Counted from the first letter of the stretch, positions 20,749-46,476 are shown. The stretch is DNA of 64,000 nt from Patescibacteria group bacterium (GCA_020148145.1 JAHCRE010000011.1:3360-67359), one strand, 5' to 3'. The notes: generated by a model not told the origin, from the letters alone. Numbers and translations are program-made.

Positions 20749-20821
20749 AACATTTACTTAAATTGAAAATTCTTCAAAAATCCTTAAAAACATCGAAACC
20801 ACCACCTTAAATTCCCAAAAA

Positions 20822-20856
20822 GGGGTTATCCAAAATAAGGATTGACCCCGTTTTTT
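20822..20856 (+). terminator. conserved terminator GGGGTTATCC..GGATTGACCCC + T-run
   Basis: same hairpin after the paralogs at 31788-31820 and (inverted) 41786-41826. Confidence 0.7.
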
Positions 20857-20888
20857 ATTTTAAGAAAATTTTGTTAAAATATTATAAG

Positions 20889-26252: not shown

Positions 26253-27869
26253 ATGGAAACCTCTGATTTTAAATTTATTAAACCGGGAGAAATTCGAACA
26301 AGAATAGCTCCTGCCCCTACTGGTTTTCTACATATTGGTACAGCCAGAACTGCTCTTTTTAATTATCTCTTTGCTAAAAAAAACCAGGGCGTTTTTATTT
26401 TAAGAATTGAGGACACTGACATTGAAAGATGCAAAACCGAATATGAAAAAGATATTATGGAGAGTTTAAAATGGCTAGGAATTGAGTGGGATGAAGGACC
26501 AACAGAAAATAAAAAATATATTAGGGATTATGGACCCTATAGACAAAGTGAAAGATCAGAGATTTACAGAAAATACCTGGAAAAATTATTAGATGAGGGT
26601 ATGGCTTATCGTTGTTTTTGTTCAAAAGAGGAGTTAGAAGCCCAGAGGCAGTATCAAATGTCAATTGGTGAACCTCCGCGCTATTCTGGAAAATGCTCCC
26701 AGCTTTCTTCAGAGGAAATAAAAAAATATTTAGCTGAGAGGAAAAAATCGGTCATTAGATTCAAGATGCCCTCAAAAAAGGTAGTTTTTGAAGATATGAT
26801 CAGGGGACGTGTAGAATTTGATTCTGGCCTAATTGGAAATATTGTCATTGCCAAAGACCTTTTTACTCCTCTTTATAATTTTGCCTGTGTCATTGATGAT
26901 TTTGAAATGAAGGTATCTCATGTAATAAGAGGGGAAGACCATCTTCCTAACACTCCCAAGCAAATTCTAATCCAAAAGGCCTTGGGCTTCCCTCAGCCCA
27001 AGTATGCTCATTTACCTTTGATTTTAGGCCCAGACAGGACTAAATTAAGTAAAAGACATGGTGCAGTTGCTATCGCAGAATTTAAAAAAGCCGGCTATTT
27101 ACCCGAGGCTTTAATTAATTTTATGGCCTTTTTGGGGTGGAATCCCGGAGGGAAAAGAGAAATTTATTCCCCGGCTTCTCTAATAAAAGAGTTTTCAATG
27201 GAAAGGGTCCAAAAAGGAGGGGCAGTTTTTAATACTAAGAGGTTAGATTTTTTAAATGGATTCTATATTCGCCAAAGATCGATTGAGAAACTAACTGAGC
27301 TTTGTCTACCTTATCTAATTGAAGCAAGATTGATTGAGGAGTTAGAACAAAGTCCTGGCGATAGAAAAATATTAGGGTTTTTTAAAACTAAGGGAAAAAA
27401 GTTTAAAATTAAAGAAACAGGAGAGATTATAGATTTAGATTATTTAAAAAAAATTGTTTCAATATATCAAGAAAGATTAAAAAAATTATCTGAAATTTCA
27501 GAATTAACTGATTTTTTCTTTAAAGAAAAATTGGGATATGATAAGAATCTTTTGAAATGGACGCTACCCTTCCGTCATCCTCTGACAGAGCAAACTCCTG
27601 AGATGATAAATAAAGAAGTCAGAGTTTGTCTTGATAGATTAAGAAAGATATTGTCTAAAATAAGAGGGGGGAATTGGAATAAAGAAAATTTAGAAAGGTT
27701 TTTAATGCCAGAAGCCGTGAAAATAGGGGATAAGGGAAAGATTTTATGGCCTTTTAGGGTTGCCTTGACTGGCAAAGAAGCTTCGGCCGGACCTTTTGAA
27801 ATTGCTGAGATTTTGGGGAGGGAGAAAGTCTTAAAAAGAATAAAAGAGGCCAGAGAATTAGTAAAATAA
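26253..27869 (+). CDS. gltX: glutamate-tRNA ligase
   Basis: RIAPAPTGFLHIGTART (HIGH), KLSKRHG (KMSKS). Confidence 0.9.
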   Translation: METSDFKFIKPGEIRTRIAPAPTGFLHIGTARTALFNYLFAKKNQGVFILRIEDTDIERCKTEYEKDIMESLKWLGIEWDEGPTENKKYIRDYGPYRQSERSEIYRKYLEKLLDEGMAYRCFCSKEELEAQRQYQMSIGEPPRYSGKCSQLSSEEIKKYLAERKKSVIRFKMPSKKVVFEDMIRGRVEFDSGLIGNIVIAKDLFTPLYNFACVIDDFEMKVSHVIRGEDHLPNTPKQILIQKALGFPQPKYAHLPLILGPDRTKLSKRHGAVAIAEFKKAGYLPEALINFMAFLGWNPGGKREIYSPASLIKEFSMERVQKGGAVFNTKRLDFLNGFYIRQRSIEKLTELCLPYLIEARLIEELEQSPGDRKILGFFKTKGKKFKIKETGEIIDLDYLKKIVSIYQERLKKLSEISELTDFFFKEKLGYDKNLLKWTLPFRHPLTEQTPEMINKEVRVCLDRLRKILSKIRGGNWNKENLERFLMPEAVKIGDKGKILWPFRVALTGKEASAGPFEIAEILGREKVLKRIKEARELVK

Positions 27870-28143
27870 CCAGAAAATTGGTGAAATAAAAAAGGCCAGT
27901 TCTTTTAACAGAATCTGGCTTTACAAAAAAGTTTATTGGGCTTCTGGTTCTTCTAAGATCTCTAAGCCTTCCTAGTTGCTCTAAGTCCCTTAAGACTCCC
28001 TGAGTCTTCTTGGTTCTTCTAAGATCTCTAAGCCTTCCTATGTTTTCTAAGATCTCTAAGACTCCTTGAGTCTTCTTGGTTCTTCTAATATATCTAAGTC
28101 TTCCTATATTTTCTAAAGTCTCTAAAACCCCTTTTCCTGTCAC
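27754..28143 (-). CDS. doubtful ORF translating the 66-bp repeats as 22-aa repeats (GVLExLENIGRLRxxRRTKKTQ)
   Basis: GGAGG 8 nt upstream of GTG 28143, but the 3' third is antisense to the gltX end. Confidence 0.3.
   Translation of the reverse strand: MTGKGVLETLENIGRLRYIRRTKKTQGVLEILENIGRLRDLRRTKKTQGVLRDLEQLGRLRDLRRTRSPINFFVKPDSVKRTGLFYFTNFLVILLILWPLLFFLRLSPSPKSQQFQKVRPKLLCQSRQP
27944..28143. repeat. 3 x 66-bp tandem repeat
   Basis: units 27944-28010, 28011-28076, 28077-28143; each carries several (T)CTAAG motifs. Confidence 0.85.
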
Positions 28144-28180
28144 TTTTTTCACCTCCAAAGAGCTATTTATTTAGCAGACT

Positions 28181-28525: not shown

Positions 28526-28540
28526 TACTAGGATAGAATA

Positions 28541-28618
28541 ATATTGTGCGACATTTAATTAGCGGGCATAACCGTTAGGCCTGCCTGCCGCGGGCAGGGT
28601 AGGGGACTAACGGTTTTT
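28541..28618 (+). terminator. conserved 3' module: ATATTGTGCGACATTTA motif plus AACCGTTAG..CTAACGGTTTTT hairpin (GC insertion in the loop)
   Basis: same module at 42184-42244 (-); related module with the motif inverted at 40011-40070. Confidence 0.65.
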
Positions 28619-28636
28619 GTTTGCCTCGGCTTGCTA

Positions 28637-28664
28637 TTGACAAATTTTGTATATTTGCTATAAT
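28637..28664 (+). promoter_or_regulatory. consensus promoter TTGACA-N16-(TGC)TATAAT driving cassette array 1
   Basis: GCTATTGACAAATTTTGTATATTTGCTATAAT. Confidence 0.65.
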
Positions 28665-28680
28665 TAAAATATAAAGTGAA

Positions 28681-28776
28681 ATAGTTCTTTAAAATAAAAT
28701 ATGGGGAAGGGAAGAATTTCATCTCCCGCAGAGAGGAAATCAAAAACTGGTTTTTTGCCTGCGGGAGAGTGAAAAA
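28681..28776 (+). promoter_or_regulatory. structured 5' leader A (ATAGTTCTTTAAAA, G-box, hairpin, SD)
   Basis: GGGGAAGGGAAGAA 28703-28716; stem CTCCCGCAG 28723-28731 / CTGCGGGAG 28759-28767. Confidence 0.6.
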
Positions 28777-28989
28777 ATGAAGAGAAAAATGTGGGAGAAA
28801 ATACTGAGATACTTCGCTGTGGGAGGAGTCTTTGTAATTATCATACTAGCAAGCGCGGGGGTGATAGTGTTTCTAATAGCATTCTCAGGCCTTGGTCTAG
28901 CGTCTCTACCGTTAGTAGCATGCTTTATCTGTATATTTGCATTCTTCCTACAGGAAAAAGGGATAAAAGCGATACTCGAGTTATTGTGA
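28777..28989 (+). CDS. small 2-TM membrane protein (70 aa), cassette 1
   Basis: two long hydrophobic segments; follows leader A. Confidence 0.6.
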   Translation: MKRKMWEKILRYFAVGGVFVIIILASAGVIVFLIAFSGLGLASLPLVACFICIFAFFLQEKGIKAILELL

Positions 28990-28993: not shown

Positions 28994-29060
28994 TTCTCCT
29001 TTCCCCTCTTTTTTCGAGCCCGCAAATAGTTGTGGATTCGAAAAAGGAGTTAGTTCTTTA
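28994..29060 (+). repeat. cassette junction J1: C-box plus CTCTTTTTTCGAGC..GAAAAAAGGAG hairpin
   Basis: TTCTCCTTTCCCCTCTTTTTTCGAGCCCGCAAATAGTTGTGGATTCGAAAAAAGGAGTTAGTTC; copies at 29654, 47151(-) and 46381(-). Confidence 0.75.
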
Positions 29061-29148
29061 AAATCAAATATGGGGAAGGGAGAGAATTTATCTCTCGCAG
29101 AGAGGGAGTTAATAAAAATAGCTTCTTGCCTGCGGGAGATGAAAAGAG
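29061..29148 (+). promoter_or_regulatory. structured leader B
   Basis: GGGGAAGGGAGAGA 29072-29085; stem TCTCTCGCAG 29091-29100 / CTGCGGGAGA 29130-29139. Confidence 0.55.
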
Positions 29149-29190
29149 TTGCGGAGGAAAACGGTTGGGAGAAGTAATTTTCTCGGATTC

Positions 29191-29640
29191 ATGATTCGCG
29201 ATAAACGGGAAAGGAAAGTAAGAAGTAAACATTATAGGAAAGGGAAGATAATACTCCTCGGAATACAAGTGGGTATCATTATTATCATCGGGGGTTCCTT
29301 GCTTGATTTAGCGATTATCAGAATTATAAGTGGATTATGGTTTTTAACATTTTTAACACTAACTGCTTTTGTTTTTTTACTATTTTCAAACTGGTTAATT
29401 TATAGTTTGCTGGCCCCTATGCCTTATATTGGCAGGAGTTTCAAAGAATGGCACGCGACAGAGCATAAACTCATATACCTGCTAGAAAATGGTGAAAGAT
29501 TGACATTAGAAAATCTAAGAGCAGCACCATCGCGTAATCGTAGATGCGCAAGCAGAAACATGTGGCTAAAGGAACCTTCGGACGATAAACTAGAAGAAGC
29601 CTTTAGGGTAGGCCGTGAATATCTCAATCTGTTTACTTGA
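29191..29640 (+). CDS. membrane protein with DUF1385-like motifs, cassette 2 (alternative TTG start 29149)
   Basis: 3 TM segments, then WHATEHKLI..LTLENL..RRCAS, resembling the GAEHK/RCGT motifs of DUF1385 (from memory). Confidence 0.55.
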   Translation: MIRDKRERKVRSKHYRKGKIILLGIQVGIIIIIGGSLLDLAIIRIISGLWFLTFLTLTAFVFLLFSNWLIYSLLAPMPYIGRSFKEWHATEHKLIYLLENGERLTLENLRAAPSRNRRCASRNMWLKEPSDDKLEEAFRVGREYLNLFT

Positions 29641-29653: not shown

Positions 29654-29720
29654 TCTCCACTTTCCCTCTTTTTTCGAGCTCATAAACCTTGTGGGCTGAA
29701 AAAAGGAATTGTTCTTTTAA
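29654..29720 (+). repeat. cassette junction J2
   Basis: TCTCCACTTTCCCTCTTTTTTCGAGCTCATAAACCTTGTGGGCTGAAAAAAGGAATTGTTC. Confidence 0.75.
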
Positions 29721-29726
29721 AAATAT

Positions 29727-29810
29727 AAAAAAGGGGAAGTTCACGTAGGTGAATTGTCTATCAAAATTTGGTAAATAGCTCACCTACGTGAAAGGAGGTG
29801 AAAATCAAGT
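29727..29810 (+). promoter_or_regulatory. structured leader C (subtype 2)
   Basis: perfect 13-bp stem TTCACGTAGGTGA 29740-29752 / TCACCTACGTGAA 29780-29792; conserved loop AATTGTCTATCAA..GGTAAATAGCTC; SD AGGAGGTG. Confidence 0.65.
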
Positions 29811-30455
29811 ATGAGTGCAAGTGTAACAAGTAAGAAAAGTGAGACAAGTGAAACGAGAGAAGAAGAACAAGTGAGGCAAGTGAGAAAGGCGTTTGAGAAA
29901 ATGCTCGCAAGTTTTATGTTCGAAGTTAAAAAGAAAGATAAGGTTGATGATATAAGGAAGATGATAAAAACTTTCATTGAGGCTGGAATTCTCCAAGAAC
30001 GAGCAGAACGAGCGCAAATATCCTTTGACATTCGAAAAGGAATCGCTTCTGTCAGTCTTCTTTCCTACGAGAAATATTTTACTAAGCTGTGGAAAGATAC
30101 GTTAGAAAAAATGTCTAAATGGTTCGAGGCCACAATAAAGAGAGAAGCAAAGGCTTTGGGGTTCAATTTTAATTGGCGAGAAGTCGATGGATTCTTTCTT
30201 GACATTCGTACGTCTGACGAAAAAGAAGATCACGAATATGCGAGAGCAACATTATACCGTCCTGAGGCATTTAAGGAAGCACAAAAGATAATGCACTATA
30301 CCCACACGAAGCTAAATGAGTTAGGATTTTCTGCGCAAATCATCAAGGTCGTTACTCCTGGAAAAGTTTACACCATCGATGCATTAAAATACATTGTCCG
30401 AAACATCACTGCCGTCGCTTACTTAAGAACGGGAGTCGAAATTCGTTCCCTCTAA
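29811..30455 (+). CDS. hypothetical protein (214 aa), cassette 3
   Basis: strong SD; no known motif. Confidence 0.65.
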   Translation: MSASVTSKKSETSETREEEQVRQVRKAFEKMLASFMFEVKKKDKVDDIRKMIKTFIEAGILQERAERAQISFDIRKGIASVSLLSYEKYFTKLWKDTLEKMSKWFEATIKREAKALGFNFNWREVDGFFLDIRTSDEKEDHEYARATLYRPEAFKEAQKIMHYTHTKLNELGFSAQIIKVVTPGKVYTIDALKYIVRNITAVAYLRTGVEIRSL

Positions 30456-30506: not shown

Positions 30507-30527
30507 GCCCGTTGCTGGGCAGTTTTT
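30507..30527 (+). terminator. rho-independent terminator ending array 1
   Basis: GCCCGTTGCTGGGC + TTTTT. Confidence 0.6.
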
Positions 30528-30545
30528 ATTTTGCTCGGTACGCTA

Positions 30546-31252: not shown

Positions 31253-31351
31253 AAGTATAAAAAACTACGAATTTCCATTAAGGGGCTTTCCAAAAAGGAT
31301 TGACCCCATTTTTTATTCTTAGGGTAAGGAACTGGCGGTTTTTTGATAATA

Positions 31352-31762: not shown

Positions 31763-31912
31763 CCAACCGTCCTGAAATTTCCAGCAAGGGGTTATCCAAA
31801 AAGGATTGACCCCGTTTTTTATTTTAACTCCCTCCAAACAGGTTCTAACATTGTCTTGCAACATGTGTTGTTAGGCCGAGCGTCTCACAAGACATATTAA
31901 GCGACATTTCTT

Positions 31913-32126: not shown

Positions 32127-32306
32127 ATGGATCATCTTTTAACCATTAAAGAGGTTGCTAAATATCTCAAGGTCAGCGAGAGGTCTATTTTGCGTTATAT
32201 TGAATCTGGTCGACTTAGAGCTTCTAAGATCGGCCAATGGCGTATCAAGAAAGGGGATTTAGAAAAATTTTTAAAAGAAAACTCAAATGTCAAAAAGAAA
32301 ATTTAA
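32127..32306 (+). CDS. excisionase-family helix-turn-helix DNA-binding protein (59 aa, below the track cutoff)
   Basis: LLTIKEVAKYLKVSERSILRYIESGRLRASKIGQWRIKKGDLEKFL; overlaps the MTase start by 20 nt. Confidence 0.7.
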   Translation: MDHLLTIKEVAKYLKVSERSILRYIESGRLRASKIGQWRIKKGDLEKFLKENSNVKKKI

Positions 32307-33447
32307 AAAAAGAGATGGCTGGGATTTTACAGAGGTACCTTTAAGAATCAGACAGGGTGGGGTTCATTTCTTTCATCACTATACAGCTAAATTTATACCT
32401 CAAATTCCAGAAAAATTTATTAAAATGTACTCCCAAAAACGAAATAATATCGTGGTCGATCCGTTTATGGGCTGTGGGACTACTTTGGTAGTTGCTAAAT
32501 TGATTGGTTGTCATTCCTACGGTGTAGATACCAATCCTTTAGCAGTTAAAATTACTAAAGTAAAAACAATGGTCGTTAACAAAAAAATTGTAGAGGAAAT
32601 AGATGATTTCATTCATTGGATTTCATCTCGTAAAGAATATAGAAAAACAAATAATACAAAATCTCTTTCCAAGACAGATTTTCGACAAGGGGAGAAAGGC
32701 ACATTTCTATTTGAAGGCAGTAAAGAGTGGTTTAGAAATGACGTAGCGGGCAAGATTAAAAACATATTAAATCGAACAAAAGTTTACGACGAACATGTAC
32801 GGGACTTTATAAAAGTCGGGGTTTCGGATTTATTAAAAGGTATGAGTAATGCCCGTATGGATATCAATGTTCCCACGCTTCCATCTCGCCCGATTTACAT
32901 AGATAAAAAGCATTATTATAGAAGGGTAAACAATCGGACAAGATACATTCCGGTTTATTCAAGAGTATTATCGCAAGTTTTAAGAATGAAAAAAGCAATT
33001 TTAGAGTTTAACAAGAACATAAATCATAATTTAATTTGTAAACCTAAGCTGGGCGATGCTAGAGAGTTAAGTAAACACGTAAAGTCGTGTAATCTTGTTA
33101 TAACTTCTCCACCATACTGGTCAGCTCAAAATTATCAGAAACTTCACATGCTCTCATTTAAGTTATTTGGTCTGAACATAGATGAGGAAGATGAAATTGG
33201 AAGGAATGGTCATGACCATTATCAAAAGGACATGGTAAAAGTTCAAGAAGAAATCGCAAAAATTCTTAAAGGATACTATGGTCTTGTTATAGGTAAAGAT
33301 AAGCGGAATCGAGAACATTTGAAGCTCGTAGAATCGGCTAAAAGAGTTGGTTTTAAATTAGTTGATAGGTTTGTTAGACGCTTAAGCAACCAAACATTTT
33401 TTTCTAAACAAATTAAAAATGAGTTTATTTATGTTTTTAAAGTTTAA
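32287..33447 (+). CDS. DNA amino-methyltransferase (N4-C or N6-A), motif I before motif IV
   Basis: VVDPFMGCGTTLVVA (FxGxG) near the N-terminus, ~200-aa insert, then VITSPPYW. Confidence 0.8.
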   Translation: MSKRKFKKRDGWDFTEVPLRIRQGGVHFFHHYTAKFIPQIPEKFIKMYSQKRNNIVVDPFMGCGTTLVVAKLIGCHSYGVDTNPLAVKITKVKTMVVNKKIVEEIDDFIHWISSRKEYRKTNNTKSLSKTDFRQGEKGTFLFEGSKEWFRNDVAGKIKNILNRTKVYDEHVRDFIKVGVSDLLKGMSNARMDINVPTLPSRPIYIDKKHYYRRVNNRTRYIPVYSRVLSQVLRMKKAILEFNKNINHNLICKPKLGDARELSKHVKSCNLVITSPPYWSAQNYQKLHMLSFKLFGLNIDEEDEIGRNGHDHYQKDMVKVQEEIAKILKGYYGLVIGKDKRNREHLKLVESAKRVGFKLVDRFVRRLSNQTFFSKQIKNEFIYVFKV

Positions 33448-33459
33448 ATTTTGATTATT

Positions 33460-34959
33460 ATGAAAACTTTTGATTTTAGCAAATCAGTAATTCAGGAGGT
33501 TATAGATGAATTCGATCGAGCAGAAAAATACATAAAAATAGCTATGTTTCAAATCCACAATGATTTAGTTATTGATAAATTATTCAAAAAAATTAAGGAG
33601 GGGTTAATAGTAGAAATAATAACATTACCTTATGATAGTATTCACGAGAACGTAAGAGAACATGTAACAGAGAGACTAGAAAAGCTTAAATCTAGAGGGG
33701 GTAATATTCTATTCTGTAAATGGAATGTTGGAGACCCTGAAAGAACCACGACAGCAGTGGGAAGGTGGTATTTATTTCATGGAAAGTTCATCGTAACGGA
33801 TAAGGCAGCGATTAGTCTTTCTGCAAATTTTATCCAAACTCCTGAGCTAGACGCAATCCTAATTTTCAGAAATGAGCAAGATAAGATTCAAGAATTTAAT
33901 AATAAATTCGAGGAACTAAAAGAGTTATTCATAATTGAAAATAATGGTTATGAAGGGAATATTAGACAAAAAATATCGGAGACAAAGCACCCAAGAGCTA
34001 AAGAAGTTTTTGCACTTCCAAGGGGAATAAGCGAAGTATATAAAAAAACATGGATACAACATTATCCATCTGAATTATGTCCTAAGGATGTAAATATAGA
34101 AGAAAAACTATATATAACTCCATTTGATTGTAGGGGAAGAAATTTTCTTATGAAGATTATTGATGAGGCCGAAAAATTCGTTTATATTTCCTCTGAAAGT
34201 TTCACTGATAAAGAATTTCCTAATTTCTTAAAAAAAATTAGATTCAAAAATATAGAGATAAAGTTATTAACTGAATTTGGAAGCATGGATTTTTCTGATA
34301 GAATACAAATTTTTATGAAAGAATTATTAGCAGCGGGCGTACAAATGAATACAACAAGAGAAGATTTACATGCCAAACTAGTAATTACAGATAAATTAAT
34401 CGCTATAACCTCAATAAATCTTAATAGAATAAATTTAGGATTTAAGAAAACCGGAGATTTTTGGAGAGAGAACACAGAGACAATACTAATATGTAGAGGT
34501 CACAACATAATAAGGAAAGCAAGACAGAAATATAACGCAATTTTTAATGCATCGGAAAAAATTATTGATAAAATGGCTGAGAGAAATTCATCAGTTGCTG
34601 GGAGACTATTTAGGGATGTGTTCAAAATTAGATCGGGTTCAGATGCTAAGCTATTTTTAGCTAAACTGAAATTGAATGTAGATATTAACAAAGAGAAATT
34701 TTTATTAGATGTTTTAAAACTAACCATTAAGCTAGCTAATAATTTTAATGTGAGAATAATTTCAAAAAAAGAAGTATTGATGGCTTTAATATTAAATTAT
34801 CTAAGTGAGAGGAAGCATGATTTCAATGAATTATCCGAGAAATTAGATCCAATTATAGAGCGAGCAGAAATAGAACCCGTCTTAGACATTCTTGTTTCAC
34901 GTAATCTAATTGTAAAGCAAGGAGAATTTTACAAGATAAACGTTGATGCAATTTTCTAA
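33460..34959 (+). CDS. PLD-family (two HKD motifs) nuclease, likely the restriction partner, with a C-terminal winged-helix-like region
   Basis: HGKFIVTD and HAKLVITD motifs; 3 nt after the MTase stop (TTG 33451 or ATG 33460). Confidence 0.7.
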   Translation: MKTFDFSKSVIQEVIDEFDRAEKYIKIAMFQIHNDLVIDKLFKKIKEGLIVEIITLPYDSIHENVREHVTERLEKLKSRGGNILFCKWNVGDPERTTTAVGRWYLFHGKFIVTDKAAISLSANFIQTPELDAILIFRNEQDKIQEFNNKFEELKELFIIENNGYEGNIRQKISETKHPRAKEVFALPRGISEVYKKTWIQHYPSELCPKDVNIEEKLYITPFDCRGRNFLMKIIDEAEKFVYISSESFTDKEFPNFLKKIRFKNIEIKLLTEFGSMDFSDRIQIFMKELLAAGVQMNTTREDLHAKLVITDKLIAITSINLNRINLGFKKTGDFWRENTETILICRGHNIIRKARQKYNAIFNASEKIIDKMAERNSSVAGRLFRDVFKIRSGSDAKLFLAKLKLNVDINKEKFLLDVLKLTIKLANNFNVRIISKKEVLMALILNYLSERKHDFNELSEKLDPIIERAEIEPVLDILVSRNLIVKQGEFYKINVDAIF

Positions 34960-34967
34960 GGCAAAAA

Positions 34968-34991
34968 AGCCCATCGCTGGGCTGTTTTTTT
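34968..34991 (+). terminator. rho-independent terminator after the R-M pair
   Basis: AGCCCATCGCTGGGCT + TTTTTTT. Confidence 0.65.
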
Positions 34992-35045
34992 ATCCAGTTT
35001 GACACTTATTAAAAAGCCAGCTACTTTGAAAGTGGGAGATTACTT

Positions 35046-35528
35046 ATGAAAGAAAAAAATAAATTAAAAAAGATAAAATATAAAATTAAAACAGCTCTCG
35101 ATCAATTATACAAAACTGATTATTTTCTATTCGAAAAAGATTTGTGTGAAAGATGTATAAATCATAAATTTGCAATATATTTGGAACAACAAAGTTTTGG
35201 TAAAGGATACTTTATCGACTGTGAATATAATAAATCCCATCTTAATCAAAGAACTAGCCCAAAAAGAGTCTCTAGTGAGAAAGGAAACTATATCGACATC
35301 ATTATCACCAAAAGAGACGGTAATTATAGGAACGATTTTATTTGTTTTGAGGTTAAGAAATGGAAGAATTATAGAAAGAAAAATAAGGATATAGAAAAAT
35401 TACAAATTTTAACCAAAGGAATACGATTTGGCTATGATTATGGTTTTTATGTCATTTTAGGAAGGACAAGAGATGAAACAAAAGTTGAAATATATAAAGG
35501 AGGAAAACTTTTAAAACACACTTTCTAG
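35046..35528 (+). CDS. PD-(D/E)xK nuclease-fold-like protein (160 aa)
   Basis: YIDIIITKRD ... FICFEVKKW (D..ExK pattern); SD GGGAG. Confidence 0.45.
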   Translation: MKEKNKLKKIKYKIKTALDQLYKTDYFLFEKDLCERCINHKFAIYLEQQSFGKGYFIDCEYNKSHLNQRTSPKRVSSEKGNYIDIIITKRDGNYRNDFICFEVKKWKNYRKKNKDIEKLQILTKGIRFGYDYGFYVILGRTRDETKVEIYKGGKLLKHTF

Positions 35529-35639
35529 GATGATTTAAATGGTGTTGGAACATCCTTAAGTGTCGGGCAAGGTATTTATGCGAGGTTTAGCAAAAACATA
35601 AAAGGTCGAAGAATTAATTGAGAAATAACAAAAAATATT

Positions 35640-37190
35640 ATGGCGAAAAGATTTAACAAAACTGACAAAGTTGTAATAGAACCAAAAGAAGAATTTGCTT
35701 ATGGATATATCATCAAAGCTTTAGCAGGAGGACTATACCCAAACAAGTTTCATGTTATTAGAGAATATATTCAGAATGCTTTTGATGCAGTAGTTAATTG
35801 GAAAGATACTCATAATGGCTCAAATGTTATTGTAAAAATAACAGTTAAAAAGCCCTCTATATTTATATTTGACAACGGAACAGGCATGAATAGGGTTACG
35901 CTTAACGAGTACAGGAAAGTAGGATATTCAAGGAAAAAAATAGGCGAGGCTGTTGGATTTAGGGGCATAGGGAAACTAGCCGGTATTTCAGTGGCCAGAA
36001 AATTAATAGTTACAACAAGTCCTTATGGCGTTAAAGAAAAATACGCTCTGGAATTTGATGCCGAGAGAATGCTTAAAGAGATCGATGATTTAAAAAAACG
36101 TAAGCAGAACATACCCCTCAATACACTGATAGAAAAATATACGAACATAAGCTCCGATGTCGAAAAGGCAGACAAGCATTATACATTTATAGAGCTTCAT
36201 GGAATAAAGCAGGATTCGAAGATTCTTTTTGATAAAAATAAGCTAAAAGACTACATTTCGAAAAATACACCCGTTCCTTTTGATCCAAACTTTGTTTACG
36301 GAAAAGAAATCGAAGATGGAATTAAGAAATTAGTTGATGACTATAACTGCGTAAATATTTTTGTAGACGGTGATAATATCTATAAGCCTTACATTCCGAA
36401 CCTAAACAATCCTAGACACATCGTAGTCTGGGAAAAAAACAAAACAAAAATATTAGGATACTGCTGGTATTGCGAAAACAAAAAAAGGGGGCAGATAAAG
36501 CCTATTGACAAAGCAGGTTTGGTTTATAGATACAAAAATTTTGCAGTTGGAGACCATGATTTGCCTAGGCGAACATTGTGGGATACTTCTACCCATCTAG
36601 CTTTTTACTTTATAGGGGAGATTTACATTTGTGATAAGAATATGTTACCAACTGCACAAAGAGATGATTTTGAGCAGACATCAGCTCGTAGTAGATTTTA
36701 TAATGAAGGTGTCCAGATTTCAAAGGAAATTAACAGAATAGCTAGGGCAAGTTCTGGAATAAGAAGGGCGTTGCATTATGTCGATGTTGGAAAGAACCTA
36801 ATTTCAGAAGTTAAACAGGACCTTCAGAAGCAGGAGCATTATTTAAAAGACCTCGGTGCGGAAAAAGTCGCACAGATTTACAATGTCATAAAAGGCATAA
36901 AAGAAAGAAAAAAGAATATTCCTAAAAAAAATAAGAAGAATAGAATTCTGGCAGACAAAGTCGTTAAGCAAGGGGAATTGTTGCTTAAGAAATTTGGAGG
37001 TGTCAAAAGATTAAGTAGGGAGTATGATATAACAAGAAAAATCAATCTCAATGCTCAGGCTAAAGATGTATATTCTGTGGCTATCAGAACTCTGAAAGAT
37101 TTTTTTATTGGTAACCAGCAAGAACTAGAAAAGGCGATAAGGCTTTTTCAGAAAAACTTGACGACCTTTTTCTCAAAAAAGAACAAATGA
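35640..37190 (+). CDS. GHKL (Bergerat-fold) ATPase, MORC/paraMORC-like, unknown C-terminal half
   Basis: REYIQNAFDA (N box), FDNGTGM (G1), GFRGIGKLAG (G2); AAGGTCGAA box 36 nt upstream. Confidence 0.75.
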   Translation: MAKRFNKTDKVVIEPKEEFAYGYIIKALAGGLYPNKFHVIREYIQNAFDAVVNWKDTHNGSNVIVKITVKKPSIFIFDNGTGMNRVTLNEYRKVGYSRKKIGEAVGFRGIGKLAGISVARKLIVTTSPYGVKEKYALEFDAERMLKEIDDLKKRKQNIPLNTLIEKYTNISSDVEKADKHYTFIELHGIKQDSKILFDKNKLKDYISKNTPVPFDPNFVYGKEIEDGIKKLVDDYNCVNIFVDGDNIYKPYIPNLNNPRHIVVWEKNKTKILGYCWYCENKKRGQIKPIDKAGLVYRYKNFAVGDHDLPRRTLWDTSTHLAFYFIGEIYICDKNMLPTAQRDDFEQTSARSRFYNEGVQISKEINRIARASSGIRRALHYVDVGKNLISEVKQDLQKQEHYLKDLGAEKVAQIYNVIKGIKERKKNIPKKNKKNRILADKVVKQGELLLKKFGGVKRLSREYDITRKINLNAQAKDVYSVAIRTLKDFFIGNQQELEKAIRLFQKNLTTFFSKKNK

Positions 37191-38059
37191 AATTTATGAA
37201 ACATAGACAGTATGAATCTACCGAAAATAAAGATAGGGTTAGAAAAGAAGATAAGGAGTTGATAGAAAAAGAATTTAAGAAAAAGAAAGCTAAATTATCG
37301 TACCTCGGCATGCCTTCTGGAGAATTGAAAGATATTTTAGAATGGCGAGATTATTTAGACAGATGTACGGCAGTTGAAAATAATTTTGTTCAAAGACATG
37401 AGCTGGCATTAAATGTTGTTCGTTTTAATTTAAATGGTAAAATTGATATTCTTTTTGGAGATATAGACGATATTTTGATAAAGGGGAAAGATAAGTACGA
37501 TAATAAATTGATATTTCCTTATGATATTATATTTCTTGATTATTTCGGCGGCATTTTATATAGAGGACTTAGAAGAGTCAATGCTATAGCTTCTCTTATT
37601 TCTAAACAGAGAGGGAATTCTTTTTTGTTGTTCCTAACTTTTAATCTTAAGGAGAGCAGATATGCTAAGAATACAATCGTGGATACGCTTAGAAAGATTA
37701 AACAGGAGTTGTCAGTATTCTGCTGGGATGAAAAAACAAAAAAACAAATAGTAGAGATTACTAAGTGGTATGAGGATGCGGAAGAGATTTACAGACAGAA
37801 AATATTCGTACCATATTTTATTAAAACTAATGCTGAAAATGTAGGATTTGAAGTGTATGCTTACCCACCTGTCTTTTATGAAGGTTTTAGAAAGAATCCC
37901 ATGTTACATTTCGCTTTCAAGTTAGTACCTGAAGGAAAATTTCCCACAAAGGCAGTGAGCAAGCAGACAATAATTGATATAATAAATCTTGATCTAAAAG
38001 GAGTTTCCAGGGGGATGGTAAGTGTTTTAAAAAAGAGGTCGCCAAATTTAAAAATATAA
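37187..38059 (+). CDS. unknown protein with a Rossmann/SAM-MTase-like motif order
   Basis: LSYLGMPSG .. AVENN .. FGDIDD .. IIFLDYFGG; ATGA overlap with the GHKL stop; no DPPY/NPPY. Confidence 0.55.
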   Translation: MKFMKHRQYESTENKDRVRKEDKELIEKEFKKKKAKLSYLGMPSGELKDILEWRDYLDRCTAVENNFVQRHELALNVVRFNLNGKIDILFGDIDDILIKGKDKYDNKLIFPYDIIFLDYFGGILYRGLRRVNAIASLISKQRGNSFLLFLTFNLKESRYAKNTIVDTLRKIKQELSVFCWDEKTKKQIVEITKWYEDAEEIYRQKIFVPYFIKTNAENVGFEVYAYPPVFYEGFRKNPMLHFAFKLVPEGKFPTKAVSKQTIIDIINLDLKGVSRGMVSVLKKRSPNLKI

Positions 38060-38077
38060 TATATTACACTTTTAAAT

Positions 38078-39193
38078 ATGAACAAAAGAGGCAAAATGAA
38101 AGTCCTATTAGTCGAACCAAATTTCCCAATACCACCCAAAAGTAAGAACCACAGGGATTTTTTGCCTATCGGCTTATTGAAGCTAGCGAGTTATCATAGG
38201 GATAAAGGTGATAAAATAAAGCTTGTTAGGGGCGACCATTATTTTTTTGATTTTTATCCCAATCAAGTAAAAATAACTTCGCTTTTTACATATTGGTTTA
38301 ATTATGTATGGGAGAGTGTAAAGTTCTATAAAGAAAACTATCCGAAGGCCAAAGTAATAGTAGGCGGTATCTACGCGTCATTAATGCCAGAGCATTGCAG
38401 AAAATCAGGTTGCGATGAAGTATTTATTGGAGTGGATAACAAGGTTGAGAAATTCAAGCCTGCTTATGATCTTGTGGATGTGGATTATCAAATTGTCCAT
38501 GCTTCAAGAGGCTGTATTAGGAGGTGCAAATTCTGCGGAACTTGGAAAATCGAACCGAAATTTACTTATAAAAAGAGCATAAAAGATGAGGTATGCAGTA
38601 ATAGGATAATATTTTATGACAATAACCTTTTGGCTAATCCGCACATAAAGGAAATCCTTGAAGAATTGAAAAATGCCAAGCACAACGACAGGGTTGTGTA
38701 TTCGGAAAGCCAATGCGGTATTGACGGAAGGCTTCTGACTCCTGAAGTGGCTAAATTATTAAAACAAGCGAGATTCCTTAATCCAAGGATTGCTTGGGAT
38801 CACGGTTATGCACAAAGGCGTATGATAAAAAAACAGATTGATATGCTTGTTGATGCGGGCTATCCTGCAAAAGAAATTTATGTTTTTATGATTTATAACT
38901 TCGAACAGGATTATTATGAAATGCTGAAAAAGCTGAAGCAATGCAAGGGATGGGGTGTGCAGATAGCTGATTGTAGGTATAGGCCCCTGAATCAAATTTT
39001 TGACAATTACAATCCAAGAGAAAAGCAGACAGACAAGGATTATTTCATATATCCAAAATGGACAGATAGGCAGATAAAGCTCTTCAGGAAAAAAGTAAGG
39101 CAGCAGAATATTATGATAAGACATGGTTTTAGTCTTTATAGTAAAGAGCTGGAAAGATTGGGGGCAAAGAGAAGGATGAATAAGTCCCACTAA
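38078..39193 (+). CDS. B12-binding-domain radical SAM protein
   Basis: N-terminal KVLLVEPN..LPIGLLKLASY Rossmann-like region; ASRGCIRRCKFCGTW (CxxxCxxC). Confidence 0.75.
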   Translation: MNKRGKMKVLLVEPNFPIPPKSKNHRDFLPIGLLKLASYHRDKGDKIKLVRGDHYFFDFYPNQVKITSLFTYWFNYVWESVKFYKENYPKAKVIVGGIYASLMPEHCRKSGCDEVFIGVDNKVEKFKPAYDLVDVDYQIVHASRGCIRRCKFCGTWKIEPKFTYKKSIKDEVCSNRIIFYDNNLLANPHIKEILEELKNAKHNDRVVYSESQCGIDGRLLTPEVAKLLKQARFLNPRIAWDHGYAQRRMIKKQIDMLVDAGYPAKEIYVFMIYNFEQDYYEMLKKLKQCKGWGVQIADCRYRPLNQIFDNYNPREKQTDKDYFIYPKWTDRQIKLFRKKVRQQNIMIRHGFSLYSKELERLGAKRRMNKSH

Positions 39194-39305
39194 ATCTGCT
39201 ACCGAACCAATTAATTAACAATCCTCCTGCACTCTGGGGAGTTCCGGAGGACAAGAAATAACTCCTTAGAAAAAATTGAAGATTTCTTACGGGGCAGGGA
39301 ATTAA

Positions 39306-39572
39306 TTGAGAAATAAAACTATGGGCAAGTCAGGTAGAAAGATAAGGTCGACAGGAAATAATTTAAGAACATGCGAAGTATTAACCAAGGATGGTGTGTG
39401 GAGAGCTGGGTTTTTGTTTATCGATTCTTCTGATTATCTTGTTCTTGCTAATAATATTTATAACGACTCATTGATGGGTCCACTTAAACAAAGAAAAATC
39501 AGATGTATACATAAAGAAGCTGATTTTACAGTCTTTCCTCGTGAGAAAGTGTGTAATATAAAATTTTTCTAG
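39306..39572 (+). CDS. hypothetical protein (start uncertain: TTG 39306 or ATG 39321)
   Basis: ORF only. Confidence 0.4.
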   Translation: MRNKTMGKSGRKIRSTGNNLRTCEVLTKDGVWRAGFLFIDSSDYLVLANNIYNDSLMGPLKQRKIRCIHKEADFTVFPREKVCNIKFF

Positions 39573-39579
39573 CGGAGGT

Positions 39580-40011
39580 ATGATTATTTCATCCCCAACA
39601 CTTGAATATTTAATTATTGTTCCGGACAAAGCACGTTCTTTCCGATCTCGTTACGCTAAAACATATCGGGAAAAAGTACGCGAATGCGCCAAAGCTGTCA
39701 TCAAAAAAATGTTTTACAGTGACGATATCAATCTTAAGATGGACTATTTCTACAGAGGAAATCGAAACGTCGATATGGATAATGTTACCAAGAATGTAAT
39801 GGATGCATTGACGGGTTTAGTTTATCCAGATGACAAATTGGTCAAAGATCAGAGTTCTAGGGCGCATCGGATCGATAAGGTTACGAGTATAAAACGAGAA
39901 GTGTTCGATATATTCAAACCATTGCTTCATTACAAAGAATATCTAGCGATACGTATAAGCTCGAAGAGTTGCTTTCACAGGAAACAAGCTAGCAAAAGAA
40001 CGAACGATTAA
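39580..40011 (+). CDS. rusA: RusA-family Holliday junction resolvase
   Basis: NVDMDNVTKNVMDALTGLVYPDDKLV (D-DN-K..D.L.G..Y.DD). Confidence 0.7.
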   Translation: MIISSPTLEYLIIVPDKARSFRSRYAKTYREKVRECAKAVIKKMFYSDDINLKMDYFYRGNRNVDMDNVTKNVMDALTGLVYPDDKLVKDQSSRAHRIDKVTSIKREVFDIFKPLLHYKEYLAIRISSKSCFHRKQASKRTND

Positions 40012-40070
40012 TGTCGCACAATACACCTTGTAAGACAAAGAAAACCGTTAGGGTAGGGAAGTAGCGGTTT
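40011..40070 (+). terminator. ATGTCGCACAATA motif (inverted relative to 28541) plus AAACCGTTAGGGTAGGGAAGTAGCGGTTT hairpin
   Basis: motif overlaps the last base of the rusA stop codon; hairpin then T-run. Confidence 0.6.
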
Positions 40071-40081
40071 TATTTTTATTA

Positions 40082-40109
40082 TTGACAAAGTCTATATTTA
40101 GCATATAAT
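40082..40109 (+). promoter_or_regulatory. consensus promoter TTGACA-N16-TATAAT
   Basis: ATTGACAAAGTCTATATTTAGCATATAAT. Confidence 0.6.
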
Positions 40110-40138
40110 GTAGGTAGCACAAAATTGGAGGGAGATAG

Positions 40139-40576
40139 TTGGGTATAAAACAAGTTGAGGAAGCTAGTCTTGAAGGATACGAGGGACCAATTTTTCCTGA
40201 AGAGATCAAAGAACTAAACAAAATACTCAGGGCAGTAGTGCGAAAGCATCTCCGACAAAAGGACATAGATACATTGAAAGAAATCGAAAATGTAGAGAGA
40301 ATTTCTTATGCTATCGTTACCACAGACCGTTATCGTTGGAACTTCGCTTTATTTGCCAGAATGCGAAAGAGTGGAGAAGTTATTGTTGTTTTTCCACGAT
40401 TGACATCCTTTGTTTTAGATAGGTCTGTCGCCGTCTATGTTAAATCAAAAGCTTCAATTAGTGTTCAGGAAGTCAATGTGTTCCTTGAAAGGATTCAACT
40501 CAGATTTCACAGAGCCTGGAGAAGACAAACGAGAAAAGAACTTCAGGAAATCCTTGACCCAATATCTAAAGACTAA
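40139..40576 (+). CDS. hypothetical protein (145 aa, TTG start)
   Basis: SD GGAGGGAG; hairpin terminator 40578-40616. Confidence 0.55.
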   Translation: MGIKQVEEASLEGYEGPIFPEEIKELNKILRAVVRKHLRQKDIDTLKEIENVERISYAIVTTDRYRWNFALFARMRKSGEVIVVFPRLTSFVLDRSVAVYVKSKASISVQEVNVFLERIQLRFHRAWRRQTRKELQEILDPISKD

Positions 40577-40825
40577 AGGGAGGTAAAATCACAATATTTT
40601 TTCCTCCCGTTTTTTTATATATAAACTCTGTAGGGGAGTAGAGGCCTTCCACTTGACATAGCCTCTTCGGCTATTTATTATGAATATAGAGAGGGTCGCA
40701 CAATGTAGGTTAAGCGACACTTTATATCTGAAGAGAAGTACCGCTTAACCTGACGCAGATTTTGCGCACATTTAAGTAAATATCGCAAGAATCTGCTCTT
40801 TCTTATATTTTTATAAAAAATAATT

Positions 40826-41782
40826 ATGAAAAAATCAGACAAACCAATTATAAAACATATCCCCGACTTTTTGGATTATTGCGAAATAGAAAAAGGATTA
40901 TCAGAAAAAACTCAAGAGAATTATGATCGCTACCTCCGGAAGTTCGTTTTCTGGCTGAAAAGGACCAAAAAAGAGGCTCTTTTGCCCCACGAGCTAAGTG
41001 CTGATGATATTTGGCATTATAGACTCTATTTATCGAGATATAAGGATAATAAGGGCAAAATCCTTAAAAAAACCACCCAGAACTACTATTTAATCGCTCT
41101 GAGAGCCCTTTTAAGCTATTTTACAGCCAAAGATATAGTTTCACCTCCGGTGGATAAAATAAAGCTCCCAAAGGATGCTAGAAGGGCAAAAACCGTCAAA
41201 TTCCTTAAATTAGAGCAGGTTGAGAAGCTTTTAATGACCCCTAATACTAAAAACAAGATTGGTTTAAGAAACAGGGCTATTTTAGAGACATTATTCTCAA
41301 CCGGCCTAAGAATAGCTGAACTTGTGGCCCTTAATAAAGAACAATTCGCTAATATAAGAAATAAAAAGGATTTGGAGCTTTCAATTATAGGCAAAGGAGA
41401 TGTTCCCCGAACAGTATATTTTTCAGAGCGTGCCTTATCTTGGGTTAAAAAATATTTGGAGACTCGCAAGGATAAGGAAAAAGCCCTATTTATTCATTAT
41501 AGGGCTAGAAAAGACGTAGAATGCCGTTTAACAGCTCGTTCTATAGAAAGAATTGTTAAAAAATATGCAATCTTGGCTGGGGTGCCGATTTTTACTACTC
41601 CCCATACCATCCGCCATTCTTTTGCCACCGATCTCTTAGCGAAAGGCGTTGACTTAAGAACCATACAGGAATTCTTAGGCCACAAAAATATTGTTACCAC
41701 TCAGATATATACCCATGTGACAAGTAAGCGCTTAAGAGACATCCATCGCAAATTTCATAGTGGAAAAAAATTAAAAGAATAA
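40826..41782 (+). CDS. tyrosine recombinase, XerC/XerD family (island integrase or housekeeping Xer)
   Basis: NRAILETLFSTGLRIAELVAL, HTIRHSFATDLL, LGHKNIVTTQIYTHV (R..HxxR..Y). Confidence 0.85.
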   Translation: MKKSDKPIIKHIPDFLDYCEIEKGLSEKTQENYDRYLRKFVFWLKRTKKEALLPHELSADDIWHYRLYLSRYKDNKGKILKKTTQNYYLIALRALLSYFTAKDIVSPPVDKIKLPKDARRAKTVKFLKLEQVEKLLMTPNTKNKIGLRNRAILETLFSTGLRIAELVALNKEQFANIRNKKDLELSIIGKGDVPRTVYFSERALSWVKKYLETRKDKEKALFIHYRARKDVECRLTARSIERIVKKYAILAGVPIFTTPHTIRHSFATDLLAKGVDLRTIQEFLGHKNIVTTQIYTHVTSKRLRDIHRKFHSGKKLKE

Positions 41783-41831
41783 AAAAAACGGGGTTAATCC
41801 TCTCTATGGGCTAACCCCTTTTTGGGAATCT

Positions 41832-42110
41832 TTAAGGTACTGTCCTTAGCATCGCTAAACTGATAATTATATCAACAAGGTATTTCTCAACAATTCTTAC
41901 AGGTACTAGTCCTTGGTCTCTTTTAGGGATATCTGGTACGAGAGGTATCAGAGTTGTGCCAGATACAGCATTACGGACAGTAGCATGGCCACACCATCGT
42001 ATCGTCCACCGATCTTCGCCTTCGTGTACAAGAGTGACTGCGAACTTTTTATGAACCGTATCCACTGCTAACATATTCTCTTGAATTTCCATTTTCTCTT
42101 GAATCTCCAT
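41832..42110 (-). CDS. small protein, diverged member of the CCSPxG family (paralog 3)
   Basis: same length class, W-T-I-R-W-C and IPLVPDIP segments collinear with paralogs 1 and 2; same promoter and terminator types. Confidence 0.5.
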   Translation of the reverse strand: MEIQEKMEIQENMLAVDTVHKKFAVTLVHEGEDRWTIRWCGHATVRNAVSGTTLIPLVPDIPKRDQGLVPVRIVEKYLVDIIISLAMLRTVP

Positions 42111-42134
42111 TTAGTCCTCACCTTTCATATTTAG

Positions 42135-42162
42135 ATTATAGCAAATAATTTTCATTTGTCAA
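42135..42162 (-). promoter_or_regulatory. consensus promoter TTGACA-N16-TATAAT
   Basis: minus strand GCTATTGACAAATGAAAATTATTTGCTATAAT. Confidence 0.6.
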
Positions 42163-42183
42163 TAGCACGCCAAGTGAAATATA

Positions 42184-42244
42184 AAAAACCGTTAGTTCCC
42201 TACTCTAACGGTTTTTCACTACCTAATAAATGTCGCACAATATT
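42184..42244 (-). terminator. conserved 3' module (ATATTGTGCGACATTTA + AACCGTTAG..CTAACGGTTTTTT) downstream of the SOR gene
   Basis: minus strand reads ATATTGTGCGACATTTATTAGGTAGTGAAAAACCGTTAGAGTAGGGAACTAACGGTTTTTT. Confidence 0.65.
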
Positions 42245-42271
42245 ATCTAGAATCTGCCTCCTCCAACAATC

Positions 42272-45964: not shown

Positions 45965-46180
45965 AGAAATAAAAAAAGGAGGCACATAGCGATGTGCCTT
46001 TAAGGATGACTAAGTATATTAAGGTGCTATATCCCCATTCAGAAAAAAAGGGGAAGAGAGCTTTCTTTGGGATGGTGTTCTCACCCACCAAGAGGCCCCA
46101 TGCGAAGAGTAGGCTCTCGGTAAACGCACGTGCAAACAGGGTTTCATACATGCAGAAAGGCCCAAAGAAAACCCTCTAAT
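45965..46180 (-). ncRNA. candidate structured RNA or decayed cassette ending in a strong terminator
   Basis: long-range TTCTTTGGG/CCCAAAGAA pairing, C-box CTCTCTTCCCC, terminator GGCACATCGCTATGTGCC + T-run (45971-45998); weak promoter TTGACA 46213-46208. Confidence 0.25.
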
Positions 46181-46345: not shown

Positions 46346-46380
46346 TTGGGTCAAAGATTTGCCCTCATTATTATTGGGCT

Positions 46381-46472: not shown

Positions 46473-46476
46473 GTTA

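Follow-up and report, generated by a model that had tools for sequence, protein, structure and literature searches.

The leader at 29727–29810 (+) of the 64,000-nucleotide stretch of Patescibacteria DNA analysed here (GCA_020148145.1 JAHCRE010000011.1:3360-67359, called the window below) carries a hairpin that is real and belongs to an undescribed family of RNA hairpins, about 23 bp long, in Patescibacteria. We refer to this leader as C, after the open reading frame (ORF) that follows it, and to its hairpin as P2. A second copy, in leader D, lies on the minus strand (47491–47600), and leaders A, B and E also occur in the window. An earlier note, made from the sequence alone, had described the hairpins of C and D and proposed that they are functional structured RNA with a covarying stem, acting as a protein- or ligand-binding translational control element. 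Re-reading the coordinates, we found both hairpins in the places and with the arms claimed, the stem of C perfect and that of D with one G·U pair. The proposal of a structured RNA with a covarying stem is borne out by an alignment of 53 copies, and the stem is kept in related copies.

In leader C the hairpin spans 29740–29792 (+), with 23 bp and a free energy of −25.6 kcal/mol, and is built from an outer stem, an A·C mismatch, an inner helix and an apical loop. The outer stem pairs TTCACGTAGGTGA (29740–29752, 5′ arm) with TCACCTACGTGAA (29780–29792, 3′ arm) in 13 perfect pairs, and the inner helix is TTGTCTATCA/TGGTAAATAG. The Shine–Dalgarno (SD) sequence of ORF C, AGGAGGTGA (29793–29801, +), begins at the base directly after the hairpin and is followed by the ATG at 29811. 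In leader D folding places the hairpin at 47506–47551 (−). Its outer stem pairs GGCGAGCGA (47550–47542) as 5′ arm with TCGCTCGTC (47515–47507) as 3′ arm, and an A·C mismatch divides it from the inner helix, TTGTCTATCA/TGGTAGATAG. In this fold UUGUCUAUCA is paired with UGGUAGAUAG, three G·U pairs included, and a 4-nt loop remains. The SD sequence of D is AGAGGA (47503–47498, −) and the start codon is the ATG at 47490, so that in both leaders the SD sits just beyond the helix.

The interiors of the two hairpins are nearly the same, ATTGTCTATCAAAATTTGGTAAATAGC in C and ATTGTCTATCAATTGTGGTAGATAGC in D, while the outer stems are unrelated; no match to the D pattern is expected in a shuffled window. 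The earlier note had read this interior as a conserved loop. The near-identity stands, but the supposed loop is a 10-bp inner helix with three G·U pairs, together with the mismatch and an apical loop of 3–5 nt that varies, and the loop strings given had counted twice an A that belongs to the 5′ arm and the TC of the 3′ arm. Leaders A–D are more stable than expected (folding z = −3.3 to −5.3), with none of 200 shuffles equally stable; leader E gave z = −0.49 from a stretch that ended before its 3′ arm, which makes the value uninformative.

Relatives of these leaders were fetched with patterns lying outside P2, taken from two companion modules, P1, which precedes P2, and U, a hairpin behind the ORFs. 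A U-derived pattern run against species-representative genomes gave seven Patescibacteria contigs, all of which have leaders too, and a U–P1 junction pattern run against metagenomes gave at least 120 contigs, about 25 of them true family members by profile search. A long hairpin follows P1 in all 50 of the distinct leaders collected. A covariance model (R1), built from a seed alignment of the hairpin, has five sense-strand matches in the window (E = 1e-12 to 1e-6): A at 28722–28768 (59.1 bits, E = 1.3e-12), C at 29743–29789 (55.7 bits), D (49.4 bits, E = 4e-10), B at 29091–29139 (45 bits, E = 5e-9) and E at 47025–46956 (35.4 bits, E = 1.5e-6), the last being absent from the seed. Beyond these the window yields only weak antisense images of both A and C, and a match at E = 0.38. 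Among the matches listed, R1 found 49 copies in 30 related contigs, from metagenome-assembled genomes (MAGs) and metagenomes, and none in about 95 unrelated contigs that were chance pattern matches. Five viral contigs with a match to the U–P1 pattern had no leader signal.

We found no described family that matches. The Rfam search that the earlier note had called for was run with Rfam 15 at gathering scores over the whole window and returned one tRNA and nothing else. Permissive scans of both leader regions returned only hairpin-shaped noise, such as miRNA precursors at E of about 1–10, and a search of a literature library found no description of the hairpin. A leader hairpin at a ribosome-binding site, or a processing hairpin between cistrons, is a known kind of element. 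We found no described counterpart of this family or of the way it combines a gene-specific outer stem around a conserved inner helix, a central A·C mismatch, 5′ and 3′ modules around every ORF of arrays of orphan genes, and occurrence, as seen here, in Patescibacteria only.

P2 has a median length of 23.5 bp (20–29 bp in 43 of the 46 hairpins traced in full) and a median free energy of −30 kcal/mol. A loop of 3–8 nt caps an inner helix of 9–12 bp, which is followed by a central interruption and an outer helix of 10–15 bp. The interruption, 9–12 bp away from the loop in most copies, is a 1×1 mismatch or, in type 1, a 2×2 AG/GC loop. The central position is A·C in 31 of 54 copies (57%), unpaired in 37 and Watson–Crick in 17. 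Beside the loop the pairs AUCA/UGGU are almost invariant, and G·U is conserved at three positions of the inner helix. Neither the sequence nor the length of the apical loop is fixed, and it can take up insertions of about 25–40 nt; the outer helix differs from gene to gene. The earlier note had set A, B and E apart as a second subtype with the stem CTC(C/T)CGCAG. There are indeed two sequence types, but they form one family with one architecture, because they share this design and the AUCA/UGGU pairs, and the stem of E is a different one, CCTCTGCAG/CTGCAGAGG.

The variation of the stem is compensatory. In the model alignment of 53 distinct copies (A4), 95.3% of the cells are paired, against 64% in shuffles and at most 49% when the partners are slid. 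Double compensatory changes occur in 18 of 20 pairs, and the covariation score is 0.866 compared with 0.267 for shuffles, none of 500 of which reaches it. The seed alignment (A3), with 32 natural sequences, gives 95.3% paired, two-sided changes in 18 of 20 pairs and a score of 0.863 (0.267 when shuffled, 0/500), with 36–48% paired when the partners are slid. It consists of sequences with fixed 10-nt flanks and replaced a free MAFFT alignment (A2), which misaligned the variable 3′ arms. The seed was trimmed by predicted structure, a model alignment favours its own structure and the copies share descent; the slid-partner control and a comparison of own with foreign arms address these three points. 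Between copies, identity is only 30% over the 12 nt on either side of the conserved interior, and the complementary run averages 10.1 of 12 nt for a copy's own arms but 4.7 for arms taken from different copies.

P2 is an RNA that folds in the mRNA sense. The copies contain 180 G·U pairs against 36 A·C or C·A mismatches, most of which are the conserved central one. R1 gives the sense strands of A and C 59 and 56 bits and the antisense strands 20 and 24 (23.7 for C), lower because G·U pairs turn into mismatches on the opposite strand. The excess of G·U and the preference for the sense strand argue against a DNA cruciform or a symmetrical operator.

The hairpin is tied to translation starts. Behind 48 of the 50 leaders found by profile lies a plausible ORF in the same orientation, the other two being cut by the contig end, and a median of 5 nt separates the 3′ end of the hairpin from the start codon. 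The SD lies within or overlaps the 3′ arm in 22 of 44 leaders and stands directly behind the hairpin in 16. In the proximal 10 nt of the 3′ arm, 22 of 54 copies have SD-like 5-mers (mean of 4.3 and maximum of 10 in shuffles), and 21 have anti-SD-like 5-mers in the 5′ arm, with the reverse polarity in only two. Part of the apparently free variation of the outer stem is therefore the SD region of the gene and a matching anti-SD arm. Translational control by P2, as the earlier note had suggested, is plausible on these grounds. The scan flagged no intrinsic terminator at P2, whose 3′ arm leads into the SD or the start codon. Its fixed orientation and distance to the start codon set it apart from repetitive extragenic palindromes (REP), bacterial interspersed mosaic elements (BIME) and miniature inverted-repeat transposable elements (MITE). 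A conserved leader peptide or upstream ORF was rejected: the ATG of ATGGGGAAGG opens short frames in about half of the copies, the others having ATA or AAA in its place, and in contig L005 the frame is shifted by a 1-nt deletion in the loop, which argues that the conservation is not of coding.

The window is part of a Patescibacteria chromosome (metagenomic scaffold_93, ENA ERZ23498930), with Patescibacteria MAGs as its relatives. A phage origin was considered and dropped, as there was no megablast match to phage genomes, scans of viral contigs brought only chance matches and the window contains cellular genes: gltX, asnS/aspS, murD/ftsW/murG, dnaK/dnaJ/grpE, pyrG, uppS and those of ribosomal proteins L9 and L27. 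Profile searches of the window give five leaders and four copies of U, and every cassette ORF has the 5′ module (P1 and P2) ahead of it and a U hairpin behind. Promoters matching the consensus at 12 of 12 positions stand before A (from 28637) and D (from 47636) only, B, C and E being internal, and a terminator follows C. The leaders therefore fall into what are probably two operons, promoter–A–B–C–terminator and promoter–D–E and onwards.

Array 1 opens with the promoter TTGACA-16-TATAAT (28637–28664, +), which has a TG extension. In leader A, P1 consists of ATAGTTCTTT, an A/T-rich spacer and GGGGAAGG (28681–28710, +; nhmmer E = 8e-9), and P2 (28717–28774, +; 24 bp, −30 kcal/mol) has the type 1 interior CAGAGAGGAAATCA..TGGTTTTTTGCCTG; its 3′ arm contains GGGAGAG, the SD for the ATG at 28777. 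ORF A (28777–28989, +) encodes a hydrophobic protein of 70 amino acids (aa) without a Pfam family and is followed by the U hairpin CTCTTTTTTCGAGC...TCGAAAAAGGAG (29006–29049, +). Leader B has P1, TTAGTTCTTT...GGGGAAGG, at 29050–29079 (+) and a type 1 P2 at 29087–29143 (+), the inner helices of A and B covarying. ORF B (29149–29640, +; 163 aa, TTG start) has a weakly DUF1385-like C-terminus, and its U hairpin lies at 29666–29707 (+). P1 of leader C is at 29708–29739 (+), ORF C (29811–30455, +; 214 aa) has no Pfam family, and the intrinsic terminator closing the array lies at 30507–30530 (+).

Array 2 runs on the minus strand from the promoter TTGACA-18-TATAAT (47607–47636, −). P1 of leader D is ATAGTTCTTT...GGGGAAGG (47561–47590, −), as the earlier note had it for C and D alike; C has ATTGTTCTTT...GGGGAAG instead. 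ORF D (47287–47490, −; 67 aa) has a weak, sub-threshold zinc-ribbon match, and its U module lies at 47153–47221 (−; hairpin at about 47200–47154). Leader E has P1, ATAGCTCTTT...GGGAAGG, at 47037–47066 (−) and a type 1 P2 at 46953–47028 (−), with a 25-nt extra apical hairpin and AGAGG in the 3′ arm. ORF E (46477–46947, −) probably starts with the TTG at 46947; the longest frame opens at 46977, within the hairpin. It is the last cassette of array 2 and is followed by a U module (46384–46477, −). The extra hairpin of E, GUGGUGAGUUUAUCGAACCAU (window 46975–47005, −; stem GUGGU/ACCAU), also sits at the apex in L067 4274–4343 and L131 10708–10777, the three being otherwise different leaders of both types, and looks like a partial duplication of the apical region.

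Further repeated elements lie next to the arrays. After the last U of array 2 (46290–46390, −) comes a conserved element, GGAGGUGAGCCCAAUAAUA...GGGGGGAGAAG...CUUCUCCCCUCACUA, which includes a 9-bp hairpin; similar elements follow a terminal U in L015 (below 7486) and precede a P1 in L088 (near 5960). The sequence before array 1 (28530–28675, +) consists of ATAATATTGTGCGACATTTA..., the terminator AACCGTTAG...CTAACGGTTTTT and then the consensus promoter, and the same stretch is found inverted at 42124–42250 (−), ahead of the gene at 41832–42110. This genome repeats whole terminator–promoter units.

Of the companion modules, P1 is TAGYTCTTT, an A/T-rich spacer and a purine tract such as GGGGAAGG. 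Its pyrimidine half is almost invariant and any purine tract is able to pair with it, so that P1 is no more than a candidate hairpin. U is a genuine hairpin just after the stop codons, with an invariant U6/A6 base and compensatory changes in 6 of the 14 pairs of the apical stem. It was rejected as a terminator, as the last cassettes have U and then a separate canonical GC-rich terminator. A long-range helix joining the pyrimidine tract ahead of U to the purine tract in the P1 that follows, predicted by single-sequence folding, was also dropped: it shows no covariation, and own pairs score no better than cross pairs (5.88 and 5.89, p = 0.53).

The genes behind the leaders have little in common. 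Only 7 of the 44 downstream proteins (37–452 aa, median near 110) have a Pfam match at E ≤ 0.001, each of a different kind (phosphotyrosine phosphatase, M50 peptidase, cupin, GNAT and others), and no pairwise homology was detectable among the 14 leader-associated ORFs of the window and the MAG contigs. In three genomes with GltX proteins 68–71% identical, an array lies just downstream of gltX with wholly different ORFs in each. One P2, its outer stem included, stands ahead of four unrelated ORFs, with similarity stopping at the 3′ base of the hairpin, while ORF B and its homologue in L053 have the same leader type with different outer stems. Relative to the ORFs the modules are thus portable. 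The junctions lie at different places in different copy pairs, which looks like ordinary homologous recombination between conserved spacers rather than a site-specific system. In L005 the array has as neighbours gltX, murG and a gene homologous to the 114-aa one of the window, and in L116 the genes nusB, rnc (RNase III with a double-stranded-RNA-binding domain) and rpsP (1061–2847) lie directly upstream of a two-cassette leader array. No trans-factor gene was found to recur beside the arrays.

We favour, with moderate confidence, the reading that P2 is a gate or processing signal at the ribosome-binding site, read by a factor specific for double-stranded RNA, with RNase III the preferred candidate. 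It is the combination of a two-turn helix, a central interruption, sense orientation, a position at the ribosome-binding site and one copy per cistron that points this way. A length of two turns and internal loops count among the features known to make bacterial RNase III substrates reactive. For the Escherichia coli enzyme, two helical turns are typical of the substrates, and internal loops can confine cleavage to one strand, leaving a protective 3′ hairpin (PMC1540722). P2 has the length of such substrates (about two turns, at least about 20 bp; PMC1540722), has a central internal loop or bulge in the 37 of 54 copies unpaired there, and lies between cistrons or in the leader of a polycistronic transcript. 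A complete RNase III of 229 aa, with Ribonuclease_3 and dsrm domains, is encoded at L116 1642–2331, 0.8 kb from two leader copies; no RNase III domain was found among the 60 window ORFs scanned, which included all of those above 150 aa.

On this model of a gate or processing signal, the small accessory genes would be transcribed as operons from one strong promoter, each cistron with its own 5′ module and U. The outer helix would hold the SD paired to the anti-SD-like 5′ arm or end a few nucleotides from it, and at about −30 kcal/mol would close or crowd the ribosome-binding site for as long as no trans-acting factor works on the helix. A cut by RNase III would part the cistrons, so that the upstream RNA keeps a protective 3′ hairpin while the ribosome-binding site downstream becomes free. 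The model starts from the observed structure, strand and conservation of P2 and its observed position relative to ribosome-binding sites and cistron boundaries; what we infer is that occlusion represses, that a factor is needed and which factor it is.

The closest analogue appears to be the processing signals of the T7 early mRNAs (R1.1), along with the E. coli rncO and pnp leaders. These, like P2, have about two turns, an upper and a lower stem and a central interruption, and lie between cistrons or in leaders of polycistronic RNA. Their cleavage gives mature mRNAs with a protective 3′ hairpin and can alter translation. Unlike the T7 signals, P2 usually has a 1×1 A·C interruption rather than a larger asymmetric loop, its inner helix is conserved in sequence across genera, its outer stem is often an SD/anti-SD duplex, it occurs in tens of copies in a cellular genome rather than in a phage, and its cleavage is only predicted.

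Several points weigh against a gate or an RNase III signal. The SD lies outside the helix in about 40% of the copies, so plain SD sequestration cannot account for all of them. Two types of inner helix exist, each conserved in sequence, and as bacterial RNase III has only a weak sequence preference this conservation may point to a sequence-specific binding protein. The central position is Watson–Crick in 17 of 54 copies, and so the mismatch is not essential. RNase III was found on one contig of the family only, and as rnc is nearly universal in bacteria its presence discriminates little. After cleavage an outer duplex of 10–13 bp could stay annealed. Every functional step, moreover, is one that we infer for organisms that are uncultured.

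The main rival is a sequence-specific binding protein. P2 would then be a translational operator, its regulator binding the inner helix and central mismatch and either blocking 30S entry or, by melting the helix, allowing it, with no cleavage; we regard this as possible but doubtful. The conservation of the inner helix in sequence as well as in pairing (AUCA/UGGU and the three G·U positions) fits an operator well, as does an outer stem free to vary, as if merely presenting the site and holding the ribosome-binding site that the hairpin adjoins. The operators of the MS2, Qβ and PP7 coat proteins, of T4 RegA and of ribosomal proteins are also hairpins at ribosome-binding sites, with covarying stems and fixed recognition features. 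These are short hairpins of about 7 bp whose loop or bulge is conserved, one to a genome, whereas P2 is about 23 bp long and present in many copies per genome, without a known binding protein. No candidate protein gene is linked to the arrays, recognition of both inner sequence types would take two proteins or a single tolerant one, and the apical loop, where proteins usually make contact, is not constant and takes up the long insertions. The likelihood falls further from a protective role through a DNA cassette site and a riboswitch to a thermometer. Inverted repeats of chloroplast mRNAs and 5′ stabiliser hairpins in Gram-positive bacteria protect RNA in the way that P2 and U might, as passive 5′ and 3′ stabilisers against exonucleases after operon processing, with no regulatory switching. 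Each cassette ORF does lie between stable 5′ and 3′ hairpins, U is distinct from the true terminator and P2 is very stable, but a stabiliser needs neither the constant two-turn length nor the central mismatch nor the conserved inner sequence. An SD held in a −30 kcal/mol stem would cripple translation of the very RNA being stabilised, and with P1 ahead of it P2 does not form the 5′ end of the primary transcript, so we think this explanation unlikely.

A DNA-level reading, in which U, P1 and P2 would serve as recombination sites or mobile repeats (attC-like, or MITE/REP-like) and the hairpin would form in single-stranded DNA, seems to us very unlikely as a replacement for an RNA function, though it may be true in addition to one. 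The resemblance to integron arrays is in the small, unrelated, mostly unannotated ORFs under one promoter and the imperfectly palindromic repeats with cassette-specific arms. Conserved spacers of about 170 nt divide ORFs that are mostly without domains, the spot downstream of gltX holds different ORFs in three genomes, the same P2 and outer stem recur before unrelated ORFs, and a tyrosine recombinase lies 10 kb away. An attC site, however, folds as single-stranded DNA, has conserved R and L boxes at the stem base with a centre that varies, follows its ORF on the 3′ side and needs IntI. In P2 the centre is conserved and the base variable, G·U pairs are five times as frequent as A·C mismatches, only the sense strand folds well, and the element is always oriented with the gene and tied to its ribosome-binding site. 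By eye, with no pattern search, no attC core sites (RYYYAAC/GTTRRRY) were seen in the leaders or U, and GTTCTTT and GTTAGTT of P1 do not fit GTTRRRY. A recombinase core site in the inner palindrome was rejected, as a loop of 3 to about 40 nt is unlike a recombinase spacer. The variable junctions suggest ordinary homologous exchange, and where neighbours were identified (the window, L005 and L116) no recombinase gene, integron integrases included, was seen beside the arrays, the sole tyrosine recombinase of the window being XerC/D-like. A ligand-sensing riboswitch or an RNA thermometer governing access to the SD we consider highly improbable. In favour, many copies do sequester the SD and no known family was matched; about 40% of the copies share with SD-sequestering thermometers (ROSE, fourU) a 5′ anti-SD strand paired to the SD. 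Thermometers are short and deliberately weak, whereas the helices of P2 average −30 kcal/mol with 95% of positions paired, and at 20 or more mostly perfect pairs are far too stable for thermal melting. Nor does the ligand-binding option of the earlier note suit a near-continuous single helix that lacks a junction or pseudoknot, has hardly any conserved unpaired bases for a pocket and precedes genes with no common function or pathway. Its recurrent unpaired positions are the central mismatch, 1×1 or 2×2, and the variable loop alone. Nor is the hairpin followed by a terminator.

A broader and more speculative proposal, which we think rather improbable, is that U, P1 and P2 bound a single-gene cassette system specific to Patescibacteria, in which each ORF carries its own expression modules and a dedicated factor that reads the two-turn hairpin selects the cassettes to be expressed. 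Arrays at fixed spots, such as that downstream of gltX, would gain and lose cassettes by exchange within the conserved spacers. If true, this would give an integron-like outcome from RNA-level modules, with neither attC nor IntI. The PeSL cassettes of T4-type phages offer a parallel, with conserved regulatory modules flanking unrelated small ORFs and plausibly providing the homology for ORF shuffling. PeSLs are promoter-plus-terminator units in phage genomes; internal copies of P2, in contrast, have no promoter, and P2 is a leader element of a bacterial chromosome.

Patescibacteria make up a very large and mostly uncultured share of the bacteria, with small genomes, and their post-transcriptional regulation is hardly known. 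The hairpin family offers a testable handle on it, a defined RNA structure of simple architecture in many copies per genome (five in this 64-kb window), attached to the least understood genes, the small orphan ORFs. If P2 is a gate or processing signal, these reduced genomes would control a whole class of accessory genes through a uniform leader. If the modules also mark exchangeable cassettes, they would explain the turnover of orphan genes at fixed loci. R1 can be used to map the regulon across the phylum.

Other features of the window were noted. A probable unannotated small RNA gene lies at 45975–46185 (−), with a promoter-like TTGACA at 46213. A stem of 17 bp, AGAGGGUUUUCUUUGGG/CCCAAAGAAAGCUCUCU, closes a three-way junction in it, and at 45999–45980 there is a GC hairpin with a U-run; its minimum free energy is −72 kcal/mol (z = −4.67) and no Rfam family matches it. 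An island-like block at 32127–41782 (+) encodes HTH_17 (excisionase-like), an N6/N4 DNA methylase, a PLD-family nuclease, HATPase_c_3, radical-SAM and RusA proteins, and ends in the XerC/D-like tyrosine recombinase (40826–41782). A terminator-like repeat of about 55 nt, CCAAAAAGGGGUUAUCCAAAA.AAGGAUUGACCCCGUUUUUUAUU, occurs in four copies, at 20805–20863, 31265–31321, 31771–31827 (+) and 41781–41829 (−), two of which bracket the block, and a 31-nt inverted repeat, 90% complementary, lies at 40041–40071 and 42185–42215.

Three further sets of repeats were noted. A 79-nt repeat, 96% identical and made up of two GC hairpins with a stretch containing TATAAT between them, stands on either side of a small ORF (11812–11890 and 12320–12398, +). 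Tandem 28/38-nt repeats (TGGTTCTTCTAAGATCTCTAAGCCTTCC...) at 27945–28142 fall within a minus-strand ORF (27754–28158) between gltX and the 114-aa gene. Three adjacent genes at 4037–6869 (+), two with weak DUF642 matches, have 300-nt and 153-nt repeats in common, 77–89% identical, which suggests a duplicated C-terminal domain.

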